Assembly: GCA_051892935.1 (NCBI GenBank)
Contig: JBJFGS010000017.1
Span: 1-22,032, forward strand
Length of the DNA stretch: 22,032 bases
Reading direction: 5' to 3'
From: Candidatus Coprovivens sp.
Lineage (GTDB): Bacteria > Bacillota_I > Bacilli_A > RF39 > UBA660
Both the position numbers and the translations under genes were made by a program. The number at the start of each line of letters is the position of its first letter. The stretch's first letter is position 1. The notes below the pieces were generated by a model. The model was given only the letters and a program-made list of their open reading frames with translations. It was not told where the DNA came from and did no database searches. Positions 51-16,311 of this stretch are shown piece by piece.

Positions 51-85
51 AAAAATAACACTATTTCTTATAGTGTTATTTTTTT
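51..85. terminator. Bidirectional terminator-like hairpin overlapping the stop codon of the HEXXH operon
   Basis: Perfect 14-bp inverted repeat AAAAATAACACTAT (51-64) / ATAGTGTTATTTTT (70-83), 5-nt loop, A/T tracts on both sides. Confidence 0.7.
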
Positions 86-1123
86 ATATAAACAATCTTC
101 ATAATATAATACATTTTTATTAAGAACAATCCCATACTTATTTAGTATATCAAATATATTATATTGATTTCCATTTAAAATAATATCTTCTAATACTGCC
201 AATGCCTTTTTTCTATTTTTTTGATAAATTACATATAATTCAACAGCAATTAAATAAGGTAGTTGATAAGAATAATCTTGTGTAATAGATTCTTCAAGTA
301 AAAAAACAATATCTTCCTCACTAAAATCATACATTTTTAAGCATCTTAACAAATCATCTTCTTTTAAATGCTTATGCTTATTAACTAAATCTAACAACTC
401 GTTTTTATCACCTAAAAAAGATGCTTGAGATTTAATTAATGTATGCAAAAAATTTTTCCTTTGAAAATTATCATCAAATAAATTATATTTTTTGCTGATA
501 AAATCAGTAGCAATTAATTCCATAAATATTGCTGATGTTTCTCTTATGACAAATGAATCTAAAAAATATTGATTAGAAAAAAAATCTATAGCATGTTCTA
601 ATTCATGAATTAATATGGTAAATTTAGTAATATTAGAATAATTAGGAACAAAGATAAAAGCTTCGCCGGTACTTTTTAAAGTGAGAGTTTCTCCAGCAGT
701 ATCAGTTTGAGGATTAATAAATTTCAAATGGTCTTCTGCTTCCTCTTGAAAACTGCTAAAACCAGAATAAAAGAACTCTCCTTGATTTCTAAAAAACATT
801 TCAGCATCTTCCGTAGCCTGTCCATCACTTATTGGAAAAAAAGAGTAAGAAGTATTAAAAATTAATTCACTTTGAGAACGACCTATATTGCTGAATTTTT
901 CCGAAAATGAATAAAAAGGTTTATAAAAATGTATATCACCAGCATCATCTAATAATCGTTCATATAAAGATATACTTTTTTCAGAAAAATTTCTTTCTAA
1001 TCTTTTAATATAATTGGACAATATACCTATATCTGCCATAACAACAGGATCACTTGAATAACTTTTTAAAATATTAAGTAACTTTTTTAAATCTTCAATT
1101 CTTATATCGTAAACTTTTTCCAT
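68..1123 (-). CDS. HEXXH metallopeptidase-like protein (M3/oligoendopeptidase F-like fold), paralog 3
   Basis: 351 aa; IHELEHAID followed by RETSAIFMEL (third zinc ligand E) and YSYQLPYLIA; start overlaps the upstream gene by 29 nt. Confidence 0.7.
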   Translation of the reverse strand: MEKVYDIRIEDLKKLLNILKSYSSDPVVMADIGILSNYIKRLERNFSEKSISLYERLLDDAGDIHFYKPFYSFSEKFSNIGRSQSELIFNTSYSFFPISDGQATEDAEMFFRNQGEFFYSGFSSFQEEAEDHLKFINPQTDTAGETLTLKSTGEAFIFVPNYSNITKFTILIHELEHAIDFFSNQYFLDSFVIRETSAIFMELIATDFISKKYNLFDDNFQRKNFLHTLIKSQASFLGDKNELLDLVNKHKHLKEDDLLRCLKMYDFSEEDIVFLLEESITQDYSYQLPYLIAVELYVIYQKNRKKALAVLEDIILNGNQYNIFDILNKYGIVLNKNVLYYEDCLYKKITL

Positions 1124-2240
1124 CTTTTAAATCCCTTGCTTTATCAAATAATATCTTTAAATATTTTTCAAAATTTTTACCAGGTTCTAAACCCAAACTT
1201 TTTACATATTCCAAATAACCAGCTGAATGCTCATTTTTACTATTAATAATTTTATATAATAAATCTAAAGCAAATTGTTTGTCATATTGATAAATAATAT
1301 ACAACTCAATTGCAGTTAAATAAGAAATAATATAATGAAAATAATCTCTCATATAAGTGTTTATAACATCTTTTACACCTATTAAATTATATCCTTCTTC
1401 TATAGACAAGTACTTTTTTACAGTTCTCTTATCATATAGTTGCCTACTAGTTAAAGTATTATACATATTAAGTTTAGAACAAATTAATTGAGCAGAATAT
1501 ATATAATCTTTTAATACTTGTATACTAATATCGAATGAATCCTGTTCTAAATCTAATTTATCTTTTAAATAATCTACTCCCAGTATTTCGAAGAATAAAG
1601 ATTCTAATTCTATGAAACAATATTTTCCAAAATCAAACATTGCTAAAGGATTTATAGTACAAGAAATACCATGTCCAAATTCATGAATAGCAGTAATATA
1701 GTCCTGTGCAGTATTATTAACACCTAGTTCTATAAAAGTAATATCTGTATTGTAAACAGAATAAGTTTGACCACTTTCTGCAATATTAGGTGACAACTTA
1801 TTAACAAAAAGAGTATTTTTAAATCTACTTGATAATAAAGTATATTTTTTACTAAAGACACCACCAATAGAACTATAAAAATCTTTACTAATAGTTAGTA
1901 CTTTAGATATAGAAGTATCAATAGTAGGTAACTTATCATTTGGTTTTATTATCAAAGATTCACCAATATCACTAATCTCTCTAATATATGGACAATAAAT
2001 ACCATATTTATCTATAATAGAAAAATCATCTTCAATAATACATCTAAAATTAGAACTTTCTCCCTTTTCTAAAAGGTGCCTTCTAGTATGAGTAAGTTCA
2101 TCATATCTATCTATTATATCTAAAATAGAGTTAGCTGTACTTTCATATTCCAATGAAAGAGTAGGATCTGCTGTTTCACATGCTATACTATAATATTTAT
2201 GATATAAATCTTTTAAATAACCAATATTCCATCTTTGCAT
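1095..2240 (-). CDS. HEXXH metallopeptidase-like protein (M3-like), paralog 2
   Basis: 381 aa; IHEFGHGIS, FIELESLFFEI, FHYIISYLTA motifs; starts 1 nt after the stop of the upstream paralog. Confidence 0.7.
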   Translation of the reverse strand: MQRWNIGYLKDLYHKYYSIACETADPTLSLEYESTANSILDIIDRYDELTHTRRHLLEKGESSNFRCIIEDDFSIIDKYGIYCPYIREISDIGESLIIKPNDKLPTIDTSISKVLTISKDFYSSIGGVFSKKYTLLSSRFKNTLFVNKLSPNIAESGQTYSVYNTDITFIELGVNNTAQDYITAIHEFGHGISCTINPLAMFDFGKYCFIELESLFFEILGVDYLKDKLDLEQDSFDISIQVLKDYIYSAQLICSKLNMYNTLTSRQLYDKRTVKKYLSIEEGYNLIGVKDVINTYMRDYFHYIISYLTAIELYIIYQYDKQFALDLLYKIINSKNEHSAGYLEYVKSLGLEPGKNFEKYLKILFDKARDLKDGKSLRYKN

Positions 2241-2241
2241 A

Positions 2242-3396
2242 TTAAAACCTTCTTTTTTGTAATTTCTTATTGAAATTATTTAATATAATCCCGACTTCTT
2301 CTTTAGCGTGTGAATTTAAAGAAAGATTTTCTATTATAAACACCAATAAATCTTCATTAGCAGGAAAAGCTAAAAATTTTTTAAATAATTCTAAGGCTTT
2401 CTTTTTGTCGTTTTTATACATGTGTAATAATTCTAAAGAAACAATAAAACTTAAAACATATACACCATCGTCTTCTATTGTAGTAGATAAAGCTTTTTCA
2501 AAACATTCTTCATCTACTTCATAAGACTCTTCTAATTCAGAAAAAAATCTATTTGACATAACAAATTTATTGTCAGCCCAAGTATTAACAATAGGAGTAT
2601 GAAGAGTTAAAAATTCAGCTAAATCAAGATAAGTTACAACGTTTGTATATAAATGATAAGCGACTTCTAAATCATCAAAATTCCCTTTATTCTCATACAA
2701 AGCCACAAGCTCTGGGAAAATAGCAGCCACCTCAATAAAGAAATCTTCGCGATCGGTATATGACACATTAGGATTGACTATATTATGAATAGCATGGCCA
2801 TATTCATGAACAGCACAACCATAATTTTCTAAAGGGCTTATATCACAAATACTAATAAAATTTTTATTAACCCCACCAATGAATAGCGTATTGCCGTTAG
2901 ATTTTTTGTCATCATTTTGAGACCTACTTAAGAACTTTATATTCTGCTGTCTTTCTTTGTAAATAGAAGAAAAGACTTGATATAAATCTCTGTCAAATGC
3001 ACTGTAAAATTTATCAACAAGACTTAACGTTCTAGAATGGTTACTAGAAGCACCAGTATGTAAAAAATAAAAATTTCCGTTTTCATCAATTTCCTCAAGA
3101 CGATTAGAAATATCGTCAGCCAATTCTAAATGATCAATACATTTATCTAAAAAATTTCCAATAATAGAGTAATATCTTCCGTAAGTTAATCTAGCGTTCA
3201 ATATACTAGAAAGCCTTTGTCTAGCAGTATCCTTTGATGCTTGAAAATTGTTAAAATTATCATGAAATAATTTATCAGTAGTATCCGCAATCTTTTGAAG
3301 ATAAACTTTTCTTTTTATATCAGATTCTTTCTCGATTAATTCGTTTAACTTCCTAATTTCTTCTACAAACTCATCGTATCCCCAATTATAAGCCAT
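2242..3396 (-). CDS. HEXXH metallopeptidase-like protein (M3-like), paralog 1
   Basis: 384 aa; VHEYGHAIH, FIEVAAIFPEL, VYVLSFIVS motifs; GGGGGA ribosome-binding site upstream of ATG. Confidence 0.7.
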   Translation of the reverse strand: MAYNWGYDEFVEEIRKLNELIEKESDIKRKVYLQKIADTTDKLFHDNFNNFQASKDTARQRLSSILNARLTYGRYYSIIGNFLDKCIDHLELADDISNRLEEIDENGNFYFLHTGASSNHSRTLSLVDKFYSAFDRDLYQVFSSIYKERQQNIKFLSRSQNDDKKSNGNTLFIGGVNKNFISICDISPLENYGCAVHEYGHAIHNIVNPNVSYTDREDFFIEVAAIFPELVALYENKGNFDDLEVAYHLYTNVVTYLDLAEFLTLHTPIVNTWADNKFVMSNRFFSELEESYEVDEECFEKALSTTIEDDGVYVLSFIVSLELLHMYKNDKKKALELFKKFLAFPANEDLLVFIIENLSLNSHAKEEVGIILNNFNKKLQKRRF

Positions 3397-3465
3397 AGTA
3401 ATCCCCCATTAATTAATGAAATATAATAACACATGAAAATGTAAACTGCAAATGTTAAAAAAATA

Positions 3466-3494
3466 TTGACTAAAAATATTAAAAAGTATATACT
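3466..3494 (+). promoter_or_regulatory. Sigma-A promoter driving the non-coding region
   Basis: TTGACT (3466-3471), 17-nt spacer, TATACT (3489-3494); A-rich UP-like sequence upstream; predicted start near 3501. Confidence 0.75.
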
Positions 3495-3500
3495 TAATAT

Positions 3501-4511
3501 AGTAAGGAGGTATACAGAAGACGAACAATTCTTTAATACCTTAAAAATATGGTTTAGGGCATAAACTTGAAAAATAGTGATAATATAAAGAAATTTATAT
3601 TTCGTTTGTGAAAAAGTATATCTAATAAATGGTATTAAAATCGATAGTCCGCAAAACTATCAAAAAGTTCATTACCGCAAATAATGAATCATATAACTTG
3701 TAACATGTGTATTTGCAGTACATTTGTATATTAGTAATAGTTTACTAAGCCAACAAGTTATTTCCAGCATGAGAAATCATGACTGAAGAGGGTATATGTT
3801 ACCAATATACTCTATTCGTCAACTGTTAGTCGTTGTATGGTTTTAAAACTCATCACCATACGATTACTATTCAAGCAATTGGAGTATCAATTTACCACTA
3901 TGGTGTTATTAATAGTTAGCATTTTCTATTTGCCAAAAAGGATGATAACATTTTAGTGAAAATGATGGGGAGCTTTCATACTAGTCCAGATATATTAAAA
4001 TATATCGCAAGTATGTTATGCATTATTGATCATTTTTGTTAAAATATGATAATAACTACCTTACTTGAATTAGAAATGTTATCCTGATGAAAAGCATATG
4101 GGAAACAAGTCTTTGGGATTTTAAGGAAAAAGTATATCATATAAAAAACAATCTGTCCGCGTTTAAAAATTGGGGAATCTTAAACTTGTCTTGCAAGAGA
4201 ATCAAGCAATCCAAATGTTGAGTGAAAACCTTTTCGGTTAGCTGCTGATTAGTGAGTCACAATATGCTATATCGTGTGTGCGCGTATAAATAAAATTTAG
4301 CGATGAATTGGAGAATTCTTATACAAAAGTATAGTTAAACGTGAATGTGTTAATGTTACTTGGAATACAGGATGGATGACGTCGTGTATTTATGAAACTA
4401 TCAAAATAGTATGTCAAACCATTCAGCTATATGGAAGTTAATTTTCAAACGAATAAATGCAAAAAAGGATTAATATATCCGAGAAAAGAACGATTAATGT
4501 TCTTTTTTTTT
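3501..4511 (+). ncRNA. Candidate large (about 1 kb) structured non-coding RNA, family unassigned
   Basis: No ORF in the supplied track; own promoter and terminator; more than 15 helices by eye, including GAAA/GCAA tetraloops (3582-3601, 3765-3785, 4190-4199), twin CCGCAAA-loop hairpins (3643-3661, 3668-3688) and domain-closing helices 3693-3701/3753-3761, 3944-3953/4074-4083, 4105-4110/4184-4189. Confidence 0.7.
4484..4511 (+). terminator. Intrinsic terminator closing the candidate ncRNA
   Basis: AAAAGAAC-GATTAAT-GTTCTTTT with a run of 9 T (4503-4511). Confidence 0.7.
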
Positions 4512-4556
4512 GCATTCAATTCGTTTGAATATAAGTAAAGCTAAAAACGTTATATA

Positions 4557-4585
4557 TTGATTAAAAACCTAAAAAGGTATAAAAT
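4557..4585 (+). promoter_or_regulatory. Sigma-A promoter for the FIST/aldehyde dehydrogenase operon
   Basis: TTGATT (4557-4562), 17-nt spacer, TAAAAT (4580-4585). Confidence 0.55.
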
Positions 4586-4660
4586 ATAAAATAAGGAGGA
4601 TTGTAAAATCCCATCTAGCGTGTCTAGATTTATTGCATAGAATAAAAAGGAGGAATTTAT

Positions 4661-5818
4661 TTGAAAGCAATGGTAGGATCAAGTATCCTTAGTAACAGTT
4701 ATGAAGCAGGTGCAGATACTGCTAAAAATGCATTAAAAGGAATTAAAAGTCCTAAGATTGGTCTTTTATTTACTTCAGTCAAATACGATCAAGACGAAGT
4801 AATTAAAGGCATTAAATCTGTAAATCCCGAGTTAAAAGTTATCGGATGTACTTCATCTGGTGCTATTATGACTCCAGATGGAATTATCTCAAGTGAAAAT
4901 GGCTTCGCAGGTATGATGGTACTAGAAGATAATGAACTAAATGTTGGAGTTGCAGCTTCTCCAAGAGGCCAAGATCCAAGAGCAACAGGAAGAAAAATTG
5001 CTAAAGAAGCAATGGAAGATGCTGGTAAAAAACATCCACCAGTAGCATTTGCAATGTTTGCATCACCAGCTGAAGAAGAATACTACCTAAAAGGTATTCA
5101 AGATGTAATTGGAGAAGTTCCAATGTTTGGTGGCTCTGCAGCTGATGATGCAGTTGTAGGAGAATGGAAAGTACTTTGTGAAGACAAAACATTTGGAGAT
5201 GGATGTGCAGTAGCATTATTCTATACTACAAAAGAAATTAAAAATGTCTTTACAGGTGCATACAACGAAACTGACAACGTTGGTATCATTACTAAGGTAG
5301 AAGATGATCGTAAGATTGTTGAAATAGACCATGTACCAGCTCTAAAAAAATATGCTGAATGGACAGGATTAAATGCCGATGAATTAATGGGACAAAACCT
5401 ATTGGTAGCATCAATACCAATGGCATTAGGTGTAAAAACAATTCAAGGAGACTTAACTGCTGTTCGTCACCCAATGATTGGTAATCCGGATTACTCATTC
5501 AACGTTGGAGCAAAAATGGCTGAAAAAACTGCTATTATTCAACTTGAAACAGACGTTGACGGCTTAATAGGTGGCGCAGTATCTACAATTAAAGAATTAA
5601 AAACAGACTTCAAAGCAGGAGCAATGTTCTTAGTTCATTGCGGAGGAAGAAAATTACATATTGGTGATAGAGTAGATGAAGATTTCGTAGCAATTAAAAA
5701 TGCTGCTGGAGAAACTCCATTTATAGTAGCATTCACTTTCGGTGAATATGGTCAAAATAACCACTCTGGCGCAACAATTGGAGGATTGTCTCTATCATTT
5801 ACAGGATTCTCTGAATAA
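4661..5818 (+). CDS. Stand-alone FIST N/FIST C domain protein
   Basis: 385 aa, TTG start after AAGGAGG; FIST-typical motifs IGCTSSG, PMFGGSAAD, VHCGGR and FTFGEYG. Confidence 0.85.
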   Translation: MKAMVGSSILSNSYEAGADTAKNALKGIKSPKIGLLFTSVKYDQDEVIKGIKSVNPELKVIGCTSSGAIMTPDGIISSENGFAGMMVLEDNELNVGVAASPRGQDPRATGRKIAKEAMEDAGKKHPPVAFAMFASPAEEEYYLKGIQDVIGEVPMFGGSAADDAVVGEWKVLCEDKTFGDGCAVALFYTTKEIKNVFTGAYNETDNVGIITKVEDDRKIVEIDHVPALKKYAEWTGLNADELMGQNLLVASIPMALGVKTIQGDLTAVRHPMIGNPDYSFNVGAKMAEKTAIIQLETDVDGLIGGAVSTIKELKTDFKAGAMFLVHCGGRKLHIGDRVDEDFVAIKNAAGETPFIVAFTFGEYGQNNHSGATIGGLSLSFTGFSE

Positions 5819-5830
5819 TAGGAGGACAAA

Positions 5831-7270
5831 ATGGCAAAGAATTTAATAGGTAATAAATGGCTTGATTCAGCAGATGGCAAAGTAATCACAATTACAAACC
5901 CTGCAACTGGTGCAGTAATTGATACTGTTCCAGAAAGTACTCAAAAAGACTGTGATACAGCAGTACAAGTTGCAAAAAAAGCTCAAAAGTTATGGGCAAA
6001 AAGACCATTACATGAAAGAGCAGATATTTTGATGAAATTCGTTTCATTAGTTGAAAGAGATAAAGATATATTAGCTAAATTACTAAGTGATGAAACAGGT
6101 AAACCAATTACTGAAGCATATGGTGAAATAGCTAATGTGTCTGTTGGAATACCAGCTTTTTGCGAAAAAGCAAAACATGAATATGGTAATATGATTCCAG
6201 CAGGTCAAGAAAAAGGTAATGAAAATACCTTACAATATACAGTTCAAGCTCCATTAGGAGTAGTAGTAGCAATTATCCCATTCAATTTTCCAAGTGACTT
6301 ATTCTGTCAAAAAATACCACCTGCATTATTAATGGGAAATACTGTTATAATGAAACCATCACCACATAATCCATTAACATTAACTAAATATGCTGAATTA
6401 CTTCTTGAAGCAGGAGTAGATGAAGGTGTTATTAATGTTATAAATGGAACAGGTGGAGCAGCAGCTCAAGCATTAGCCGCTAATCCTGGTGTTGCCTTAG
6501 TAAGCTTAACAGGAGCTACTAAATCAGGAATGGAAACTATGAAAACTTGTAGTAACAACCTTACACATGTAATGTTAGAACTAGGTGGAAATGATGCCTT
6601 TATCTTAGATAGAGATGGCGATGTTGATTTAGCTGTTGAAGAAACAGTTTGGGGAAGATTCTATAATACAGGACAAGTATGTTGTGCTTCAAAACGTTTC
6701 TTAATTCATAATTCAGTTAAAAAAGAATATATTAAAAAATTAAAGGATAGATTATCTAAAATCAAAAGAGGAATGCCAAGTGACCCTACTGTAGAACTTG
6801 GATGTCTAGTAAGTGAACAAGCTGCAATTAGAGTTGAAGAACAAGTAAATCAAACGGTTGCAGAAGGAGCTACCATTGTTATGGGCGGCAAAAGAGATGG
6901 AGCTTTCTATGATCCTACAATTTTAGATGGCGTAACAAAGAACATGGCAGTTGCTAAAGATATGGAAATCTTTGGCCCAGTAGTGTCAATTATCGGATTT
7001 GATGATATTAATGAAGCAATCAAAATTGCTAATCAATCATCATTTGGACTATGTGGCTGCATAATTTCCCGTGATATGAATAATGCTATCCAAGTAGCAA
7101 ATCAACTTGAATGTGGTGGTGTAATTATTAATGGGGCATCATTCTTCCGTTCATTTGAAATGCCATTCGGCGGATGGAAACATTCTGGAATTGGTAACGA
7201 AGGTGTCATGTCTACATTAAAAGAAATGTCACGTACAAAAACTGTTATTCTAAAAAACATTCTAAAATAA
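5831..7270 (+). CDS. NAD(P)-dependent aldehyde dehydrogenase (lactaldehyde dehydrogenase-like)
   Basis: 479 aa; IIPFNFP, KPS, LELGGND (catalytic E), GQVCCA (catalytic C), EIFGPV, PFGGWKHSGIG; AGGAGG RBS. Confidence 0.93.
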   Translation: MAKNLIGNKWLDSADGKVITITNPATGAVIDTVPESTQKDCDTAVQVAKKAQKLWAKRPLHERADILMKFVSLVERDKDILAKLLSDETGKPITEAYGEIANVSVGIPAFCEKAKHEYGNMIPAGQEKGNENTLQYTVQAPLGVVVAIIPFNFPSDLFCQKIPPALLMGNTVIMKPSPHNPLTLTKYAELLLEAGVDEGVINVINGTGGAAAQALAANPGVALVSLTGATKSGMETMKTCSNNLTHVMLELGGNDAFILDRDGDVDLAVEETVWGRFYNTGQVCCASKRFLIHNSVKKEYIKKLKDRLSKIKRGMPSDPTVELGCLVSEQAAIRVEEQVNQTVAEGATIVMGGKRDGAFYDPTILDGVTKNMAVAKDMEIFGPVVSIIGFDDINEAIKIANQSSFGLCGCIISRDMNNAIQVANQLECGGVIINGASFFRSFEMPFGGWKHSGIGNEGVMSTLKEMSRTKTVILKNILK

Positions 7271-7294
7271 AAAAGATAACTAAATAATATATTT

Positions 7295-7332
7295 AAAGAG
7301 CAAAAAATGTATTAACTTTTTGCTCTTTTTTT
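7295..7332 (+). terminator. Intrinsic terminator after the aldehyde dehydrogenase
   Basis: AAAGAGCAAAAA (7295-7306) / TTTTTGCTCTTT (7317-7328) plus T tract. Confidence 0.8.
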
Positions 7333-16235: not shown

Positions 16236-16311
16236 GCCTGATTAGCTCAGTCGGTAGAGCGCACGGCTGTTAACCGTTAGGTCGTAGGTTCGAGTCCTAC
16301 ATCAGGCGCCA
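16236..16311 (+). tRNA. tRNA-Asn (anticodon GTT)
   Basis: 76 nt; acceptor stem GCCTGAT/ATCAGGC, D arm GCTC/GAGC, anticodon loop CTGTTAA, T arm GTAGG-TTCGAGT-CCTAC, G discriminator, encoded CCA. Confidence 0.96.

Follow-up and report, generated by a model that had tools for sequence, protein, structure and literature searches.

Twin CCGCAAA hairpins as the covarying arm of a probable large structured RNA in Candidatus Coprovivens

Background

To our knowledge, densely covarying bacterial non-coding RNAs longer than about 500 nucleotides (nt) are very rare, and every such RNA so far (rRNAs, RNase P, group II introns, OLE, ROOL and GOLLD) has proved biochemically remarkable. OLE measures about 600 nt, ROOL about 580 nt and GOLLD about 800 nt. 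Here we analyze a 22,032-nt stretch of DNA from Candidatus Coprovivens sp. (contig JBJFGS010000017.1 of assembly GCA_051892935.1, positions 1 to 22,032 of the forward strand), referred to below as the window, and two adjacent hairpins in it, H1 and H2, which have different stems and the same loop, CCGCAAA. Judging from compensatory changes among relatives, these twin hairpins very probably belong to a new, large structured RNA of about 1,010 nt, in which they form a covarying arm.

Complementary loops of 7 nt are the classic format of a kissing complex, as in the ColE1 RNA I/RNA II pair with its 7-nt kissing loops. The HIV-1 dimerization initiation site presents a 6-nt palindrome, e.g. GCGCGC or GUGCAC, in a hairpin loop. 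In one report on large ornate RNAs, bridge B4 of ROOL and bridge B7 of GOLLD are heterotypic loop-loop contacts, and covariation of a palindromic loop supported symmetric intermolecular kissing loops in OLE and GOLLD (PMC12286853).

The RNA described here may work like the large ornate RNAs, and by analogy its contacts would resemble the kissing-loop bridges of OLE, ROOL and GOLLD. It shares with these families a length of hundreds of nt, many covarying helices, long invariant single-stranded stretches, a promoter and terminator of its own and a loop whose self-complementary word covaries between palindromes. It differs from them in that it matches no Rfam model, and so is not a member of any of these families, in its greater length (~1,010 nt), in its occurrence in one genus, where its chromosomal position is constant, with no match in the viral contigs searched, and in that its self-assembly is predicted from sequence. 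An RNA of about 1 kb that is extremely well conserved in one genus of uncultured gut Bacilli, and that appears in gut metatranscriptomes, offers a tractable case for asking what large ornate RNAs do and whether RNA homo-oligomers are common.

Twin hairpins and their covariation in relatives

The two hairpins are as follows:

3643-3661, + strand: hairpin H1, GATAGT-CCGCAAA-ACTATC, with a stem of 6 base pairs (bp) and the loop CCGCAAA at 3649-3655
3668-3688, + strand: hairpin H2, TTCATTA-CCGCAAA-TAATGAA, with a 7-bp stem and the loop CCGCAAA at 3675-3681

Both are present exactly as a preliminary description of the sequence had given them, with different, perfectly paired stems and an identical loop. 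They carry this 7-nt loop 26 nt apart, on either side of the spacer AAAAAG (3662-3667), and a G3667.U3689 wobble can lengthen the H2 stem to 8 bp. Folded in isolation, the segment 3636-3695 (+ strand) yields exactly H1 and H2 at -9.2 kcal/mol (z = -4.06), an energy matched by 0 of 200 shuffles, and the two hairpins are also present in the single-sequence minimum free energy structure of the entire 5' domain of the RNA. The word CCGCAAA occurs three times in the window against 0.71 expected, a count reached by 3 of 100 shuffles. The spaced pattern CCGCAAA-N12-30-CCGCAAA has a single occurrence in the 1.81-Mb genome, namely the H1/H2 locus, and its reversed control has none.

Relatives were compared in an alignment of 23 species (A1) and an alignment of 57 sequences (A3), the latter made of 61 collected sequences minus an exact duplicate (L120), two truncated contigs (L064 and L132) and a sequence with a large insertion (L032). 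The 13 pairs of H1 and H2 are 79.3% paired in A1 versus 31-52% when partners are slid, and 10 of the 13 show double-sided change, which 0 of 500 shuffles reach. Double-sided change is found in A3 at all six H1 pairs and at six of the seven H2 pairs. Stem variants in relatives include GAUAGC/GCUAUC, UUCUGUUA/UAACAGAA and CUACCA/UGGUAG. Wobble pairs are seen in both stems, so the pairing belongs to the + strand RNA.

The stems have been rewritten many times among the relatives and GCA stays at the center of the loops, a single clade with UUAU-type loops (type V below) excepted. The H1 loop reads CCGCAAA, UCGCAAA, AUGCAAA, ACCGCAAA or CC(C/U)GCAAA(A/C), and the H2 loop CCGCAAA, CAGCAAA, CUGCACA, CCGCACA or UUGCAAG. 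Exact CCGCAAA stands in both loops of 13/57 sequences; two GCA-centered loops were found by script criteria in 23/57, and 26 were assigned by eye to the corresponding class (type I below). The earlier argument for selection at the RNA level, drawn from one sequence, is borne out by the homologs, in which different stems covary around a kept loop core. Its expectation that the loops themselves would be conserved holds for the GCA center and fails for the clade with UUAU in both loops and for several lineages in which the arm is absent.

Perfect short palindromes between divergent genes could bind a protein as DNA, and inverted repeats might also act as terminators or attenuators without any further folded RNA. 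We consider this very improbable. The stems change freely yet stay paired, their G.U pairs would be A.C on the other strand, and the constant part is the loop spacer and not the arms, the reverse of what an operator would lead one to expect. The hairpins stand some 150 nt into a structured RNA that is probably transcribed, and neither is an intrinsic terminator: H1 is followed by AAAAAG and H2 by CATATA, with no T run after either. A simple scan of 3300-4800 returned no terminator-like site; it also passed over the terminator of the RNA at 4484-4515 because the stem of the latter holds too few G-C pairs. A tRNA-anticodon mimic, suggested by loops of 7 nt in which GCA takes the place of the anticodon, was set aside since position 2 of the loops is mostly C. 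The anticodon loops of tRNAs have an invariant U at position 2.

A structured non-coding RNA on the + strand

The twin hairpins lie within an RNA that sits in a 1,264-nt gap (3397-4660) and has the following parts:

~3501-4515, + strand: non-coding RNA gene of about 1,010 nt, defined by the lack of an open reading frame (ORF), by covariation, by conservation and by metatranscriptome contigs
3466-3494, + strand: promoter-like site TTGACT-17 nt-TATACT, scoring 10/12, the best in the region
3501-3515, + strand: near-invariant 5' end with a Shine-Dalgarno-like AAGGAGG (3504-3510), from the conservation profile and alignment
3502-3895, + strand: 5' domain, with closing helices 3502-3505/3892-3895, 3509-3512/3885-3888 and 3514-3524/3815-3826
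3547-3621, + strand: branched sub-arm directly upstream of the twin hairpins (helices 4-7)
3971-4439, + strand: 3' domain, closed by the 14-pair helix 3971-3985/4426-4439
4155-4346, + strand: most conserved core with long invariant runs (alignment A2, 81% mean column identity)
4185-4206, + strand: conserved hairpin capped by a GCAA tetraloop at 4193-4196 (helix 32, from the alignment)
4484-4515, + strand: intrinsic terminator, stem 4484-4492/4498-4506 followed by a T run (helix 40, 6/9 pairs double-changed)

The fold is supported by dense covariation. For the 23 species, RNAalifold predicted 250 pairs, and compensatory changes occur in 132 of these. The A3 consensus together with the two hairpins comprises 255 pairs in 40 helices, in which 91.1% of pair cells are paired (34.5-45.4% with partners slid), 160 pairs show double-sided change (84-112 when slid) and 1,547 cells carry such change (307-429 when slid); the paired fraction, pair count and cell count are each reached by 0 of 500 shuffles. 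In the closing helix 3514-3524/3815-3826 alone, 9/10 pairs show double-sided change. A strand test favors the + strand, with 91.1% canonical cells versus 80.1% on the - strand and 1,783 G.U cells versus 240 A.C cells.

Coding capacity is lacking in the same region. The gap 3397-4660 holds no ORF longer than 44 amino acids (aa), substitutions by position modulo 3 (1748/1698/1722) reveal no codon periodicity, and indels of 1-2 nt are common. We therefore assign a negligible probability to a protein-coding gene with an unusual code, or a decayed pseudogene, in which the hairpins would be incidental. Such a reading could draw on the strong promoter and the perfect Shine-Dalgarno-like AAGGAGG at the 5' end, and on similar promoter-plus-Shine-Dalgarno stretches in other genera that precede ordinary ORFs; it is opposed by the frequency of all three stop codons in the six frames (at least 20 stops in every frame), by the missing 3-nt periodicity and the indels, by a DNA identity of 67-90% in the RNA versus 26-58% in the neighboring protein, and by the massive covariation. 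The AAGGAGG itself has no start codon downstream and parts of 3501-3515 pair with 3885-3895; it may be one strand of the closing helices or a ribosome-facing site. Both promoter hexamers are conserved in the 23-species alignment, and we infer a transcription start near 3501.

Among the 4,227 models of Rfam 15, which cover OLE, ROOL, GOLLD, HEARO, raiA, group I and II introns, RNase P, tmRNA and 6S RNA, the only match in the whole window at gathering scores is a tRNA gene at 16236-16308. Over 3350-4700, with E values up to 10 allowed, six matches were obtained, all at noise level and far below the cut-offs, and with E values up to 0.1 the locus of a relative (L018) had no match. The genome has its RNase P type B, tmRNA and 6S-like RNA at other loci, so the ~1-kb RNA is not a disguised version of any of these. 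Publications on the genus, on large ornate RNAs and on kissing loops, represented mostly by their abstracts, held no description of it.

Probable expression in gut metatranscriptomes

Of the 19 listed sequencing runs that contain the RNA, 13 are registered as RNA. Four metatranscriptome runs, drawn from three gut studies, had their contigs mapped to 2000-7300. Run X1 supplied a 915-nt contig on 3555-4469, run X2 covered 3561-4454, run X4 covered 3559-4296 and 4267-4348, and run X6 covered 3530-3827 and 3950-4464. Together these span 3530-4469, twin hairpins included, and none falls on 2000-3415 or 4478-4654. Positions 3501-3529 and 4470-4515 also carry no contig, which is not read as evidence on the ends of the RNA. 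The depth figure in X1 was 110 for the RNA contig versus 2-6 for small contigs of downstream genes, contig depth being no basis for ranking genes. Contigs are silent on strand, ends and level and may stem from DNA carry-over; read in that light, their coverage fits a discrete, abundant RNA that contains the twin hairpins.

Proposed pairing between the twin loops and a third loop

A candidate partner for the twin loops lies directly downstream:

3703-3727, + strand: hairpin with loop L11 = UUUGCAG (3712-3718) on the stem 3703-3711/3719-3727, proposed kissing partner of the GCAAA loops

The GCAAA of the twin loops (3651-3655 and 3677-3681) is the Watson-Crick complement of UUUGC at 3712-3716 in L11. 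The L11 helix is 99.6% paired in A3, and 4/8 of its pairs are double-changed.

Loops were extracted by alignment column and the 57 sequences sorted by eye into loop types. Type I (26 sequences) combines a GCAAA-type loop on each of the twin hairpins with a UUUGC-type L11. In type II (9), the H1 loop is enlarged to CC(C/U)GCAAA(A/C), an unrelated hairpin takes the place of H2, and L11 reads UUAGCGG, its GCGG opposite the CCGC of the enlarged H1 loop. In type III (8), H1 reads (A/C)AUGCAAA, H2 reads UUUGCAG and L11 reads NCGCAAAG, which carries CGCAAA; the GCAAA and UUUGC words are thus exchanged between H2 and L11 with complementarity retained. Type IV (2) has ACUUGCAAAA on H1 and UUUGCAG on H2. 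Both arm loops of type V (3) are UUAU-type and L11 is (C)UUAA, so that the G-C letters are gone jointly from all three loops. The nine sequences of type 0 have no twin arm.

A run of at least four contiguous Watson-Crick pairs between L11 and an arm loop is found in 37 of the 54 sequences scored, and a run of at least five in 21. With L11 shuffled, the corresponding means are 5.8 (maximum 13) and 1.0 (maximum 5); nine other loops of the same RNA, used as controls, reach 3-16 and 0-12, respectively. The highest of these is L12, with at least five pairs in 12/54 sequences, where it reads UUUGCG. L12 (3738-3741) is UAGU in the RNA of the window, and UUUGCG in L086, L092, L121, L114, L129, L133, L068, L126, L085, L078, L117 and L072, 12 sequences in total. 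A UUUGCG-type L12 would supply a second partner for the two arm loops in these 12.

The preliminary description had offered two roles for the loops, as tandem binding sites for a dimeric protein or as makers of tertiary or intermolecular contacts. The second is favored by the GCAAA/UUUGC complementarity, which is kept, shifted or swapped between clades, and the swap of the two motifs in one clade points to kissing pairing rather than to protein sites. A loop-loop (kissing) contact is accordingly the favored reading of the sequence comparison, and that its specific form is pairing of the twin loops with L11 appears to us an evenly balanced proposition. The likeness to ColE1 RNA I/RNA II and to ROOL bridge B4 and GOLLD bridge B7 lies in loops of ~7 nt that hold mutually complementary words (GCAAA/UUUGC); the present case differs in having two 'sense' loops per 'antisense' loop and only 5 bp, and in being predicted from sequence.

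In ANTAR dual hairpins, two hexaloops carry A at position 1 and G at position 4, and the second hairpin competes with a terminator; CsrA/Rsm sponge RNAs present GGA motifs in hairpin loops. H1 and H2 resemble both in being neighboring hairpins with a shared loop motif. They differ in having 7-nt loops with C at positions 1 and 4, in that no terminator overlaps H1/H2, and in that CCGCAAA contains no GGA, and the loops thus fit the rules of neither system. That a dimeric or multivalent RNA-binding protein recognizes the identical loops in tandem, the RNA then being part of a ribonucleoprotein, strikes us as unlikely, with several observations in its favor. The same 7-nt loop stands on two hairpins 26 nt apart, both loops change jointly between clades (CCGCAAA twice, UUAU twice), a 5-bp kissing contact would not call for the degree of conservation seen in the first two loop letters (CC) and in the A-U pair that closes H2, and a GCA-centered word recurs in the RNA, in the tetraloop at 4193-4196 and in the invariant AAAUGCAAAA at 4455-4464. 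Against these stand the type III exchange between H2 and L11 and the complementary UUAGCGG of type II, neither of which a protein site would predict; no candidate protein was identified, and flanking genes vary (FIST is absent at two loci) where the RNA stays.

The loops might also dock by non-Watson-Crick contacts, GNRA-like or A-minor, into a helix or receptor of the same RNA or of a second copy. They hold GCAA followed by A, and the core of the RNA has a conserved GCAA tetraloop. In the report on OLE, ROOL and GOLLD, A-minor contacts and conserved A-rich loops are a major glue (PMC12286853). However, the loop has 7 nt and not 4, with no closing pair to form a GCAA tetraloop, a receptor sought at 4155-4160 and 4273-4284 gave no clear tracking of loop type, and the complementary L11 motifs would be left unexplained. 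We rate docking of this kind as quite unlikely.

Several observations weigh against pairing with L11. The complementarity is short (5 bp) and A/U-rich, the L12 control shows that the UUUGC motif recurs, and the RNA of the window has two GCAAA loops and one UUUGC loop, which leaves one arm loop without a partner. The best run is at most three in 17/54 scored sequences, a group that includes type I members with L11 CCUGCAA or CUGCAA and three type II sequences for which the script chose other hairpins. Only about 3-4 independent clade changes on the tree support the pairing, and because the sequences are related by descent, the shuffle control makes the result look more significant than it is. 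A covariation scan of all column pairs, aimed at pseudoknots, returned phylogenetic noise and confirmed no individual loop pairs. The loop letters CC (positions 1-2) are more conserved than a 5-bp pairing requires, which a protein could explain. Finally, 9/57 sequences lack the twin arm or have one unrelated hairpin in its place, so the RNA can do without it.

The core tree has the arm-less lineages as its deepest branches, which suggests that the arm is a later addition or was lost repeatedly and is not needed for the basic function of the RNA. In some lineages the sub-arm 3547-3621 is missing jointly with the twin hairpins. The twin hairpins thus emerge from the comparison as a peripheral arm that a structured non-coding RNA of ~1 kb can dispense with.

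A palindromic loop and probable self-association

A second loop signal lies in the 3' domain:

4268-4288, + strand: hairpin with an invariant UAUA/UAUA stem (4268-4271/4285-4288) and a large loop that holds a self-complementary 6-mer at 4278-4283

The 6-mer is GUGCGC in the window. Strictly palindromic in 38 of 60 sequences, it is palindromic with wobble pairs in a further 19 and neither in 3. The strict palindromes are of seven kinds, GAGCUC (18), GUGCAC (6), GCGCGC (4), GUCGAC (4), GGAUCC (4), UCGCGA (1) and ACGCGU (1), and the wobble palindromes of two, GUGCGC (16) and GCGCGU (3). Identical kinds recur in separate clades of the tree. Adjacent bases cannot pair inside one loop, and published work reads a palindrome pattern of this kind as symmetric RNA-RNA dimerization. 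This signal appears stronger than that between the twin loops and L11, and the RNA probably forms at least a homodimer via the 4278-4283 loop. For OLE and GOLLD, palindromic loop covariation is the signature that was used to argue for biologically relevant RNA-only quaternary structure.

The likeness to the HIV-1 dimerization initiation site is that the 4278-4283 word is a 6-nt palindrome with GCGCGC and GUGCAC among its seven variants. The differences are that the hairpin concerned, 4268-4288, is not one of the twin hairpins, that the RNA is bacterial and chromosomal, that the loop is about 13 nt and that the dimer is a predicted one. If the RNA dimerizes, the second chain may be what one of the twin loops contacts, and the two-to-one loop count would then be accounted for.

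A proposed architecture

As a whole, the explanation that an arm of a new RNA presents loops that kiss L11, in an RNA that self-associates, seems to us slightly on the probable side. A + strand RNA of ~1,010 nt would have its transcription started and stopped by a promoter and a terminator of its own. The twin hairpins would sit side by side at a junction of several helices in the 5' domain and would serve to present their 7-nt loops. Most likely the GCAAA core of these loops would base-pair with the UUUGC of L11, and this kissing contact, made either inside a single molecule or between two RNA copies, would fasten the peripheral arm to the P10-P12 arm. The RNA would probably self-associate via the separate self-complementary loop at 4278-4283.

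More tentatively, and with some doubt on our part, the RNA might represent a new class of giant ornate RNA (~1 kb) that forms an RNA-only homodimer or higher assembly via 4278-4283, the twin hairpins serving as inter-protomer bridges to the UUUGC loop of the partner. Such bridges would account for the two-to-one ratio of 'sense' to 'antisense' loops, and for the gain and loss of the arm as that of a peripheral brace. Under the kissing-loop explanation the twin hairpins are no longer a stand-alone curiosity; they become a defined element of a larger structure whose proposed partner can be tested, and the natural swap of partner motifs between hairpins would inform how peripheral kissing loops evolve.

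Distribution and genomic context

As far as searched, the RNA is confined to one gut genus. In a DNA search of 40 relatives, 23 of the 24 other Candidatus Coprovivens genomes matched along 3456-4466, at 67-90% identity, and the 16 genomes from other families gave nothing beyond short weak matches; the sole genome of the genus without a match (G013) is 85% complete. In a blastn search of 300 family genomes, only one genome, of the same genus, matched along the RNA. Matches of ~47-61 nt to the promoter and 5' end were found in 4 genomes of 3 other genera, where they precede ordinary ORFs.

A covariance model (R1) was built from A2, the most conserved 192 nt (4155-4346), and run with Infernal's stricter filters over 150 family genomes, one per genus. 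It matched 0 of the 149 other genera; its sole match was the single genome of the same genus. For wide searches an exact core pattern with 19 specified bases was used. In 185,579 species representatives it gave 36 matches, of which R1 confirmed 23 and rejected 13 as chance; those confirmed are titled Candidatus Coprovivens or uncultured Bacilli, Tenericutes, Erysipelotrichaceae and similar metagenome-assembled genomes. Metagenomes gave 72 matches (40 confirmed by R1, 30 rejected and 2 marginal at E 0.011), and viral contigs gave none. The pattern matches rejected by R1 lie in unrelated taxa.

The chromosomal locus is fixed, with peptidase-like paralogs on one side and a FIST/aldehyde dehydrogenase or anaerobic ribonucleotide reductase gene on the other. 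In the window the neighbors are three divergent paralogous ORFs on one side and FIST-domain and aldehyde dehydrogenase genes on the other. The RNA is retained where FIST is absent (L014 and L024), and is thus not a leader of the FIST gene. Across the genus its DNA is 67-90% identical, as against 26-58% for the neighboring protein.

Neighboring genes and minor features

The three paralogous ORFs are tandemly arranged on the - strand at 68-3396 and encode 351, 381 and 384 aa. Their products contain HExxH-type motifs (HEFGH, HEYGH), have no Pfam match and diverge rapidly, with 26-58% identity between species of the genus. On the other side of the RNA, a second promoter-like site at 4557-4585 precedes the FIST gene.

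Between the 5' and 3' domains, GCAUUU (3916-3921), in the loop of helix 3912-3915/3926-3929, is complementary to an invariant AAAUGC (4455-4460) in the 3' tail before the terminator, and the two make a candidate long-range pseudoknot. Both segments are invariant, so covariation cannot probe this pairing.

In the relative L018 (genome G003), a unit of ~45 nt is repeated in tandem ~13 times at positions 3526-4160 of the locus, which correspond to ~4073-4108 of the window and fall in a variable 3'-domain arm. The insert has no Rfam match and contains only ORFs of 43-116 aa, whose translations are repetitive products of the repeat units.

Conservation falls beyond about 4510, and a 14-nt inverted repeat (4441-4454 and 4519-4532, 93% complementary) brackets the terminator hairpin.

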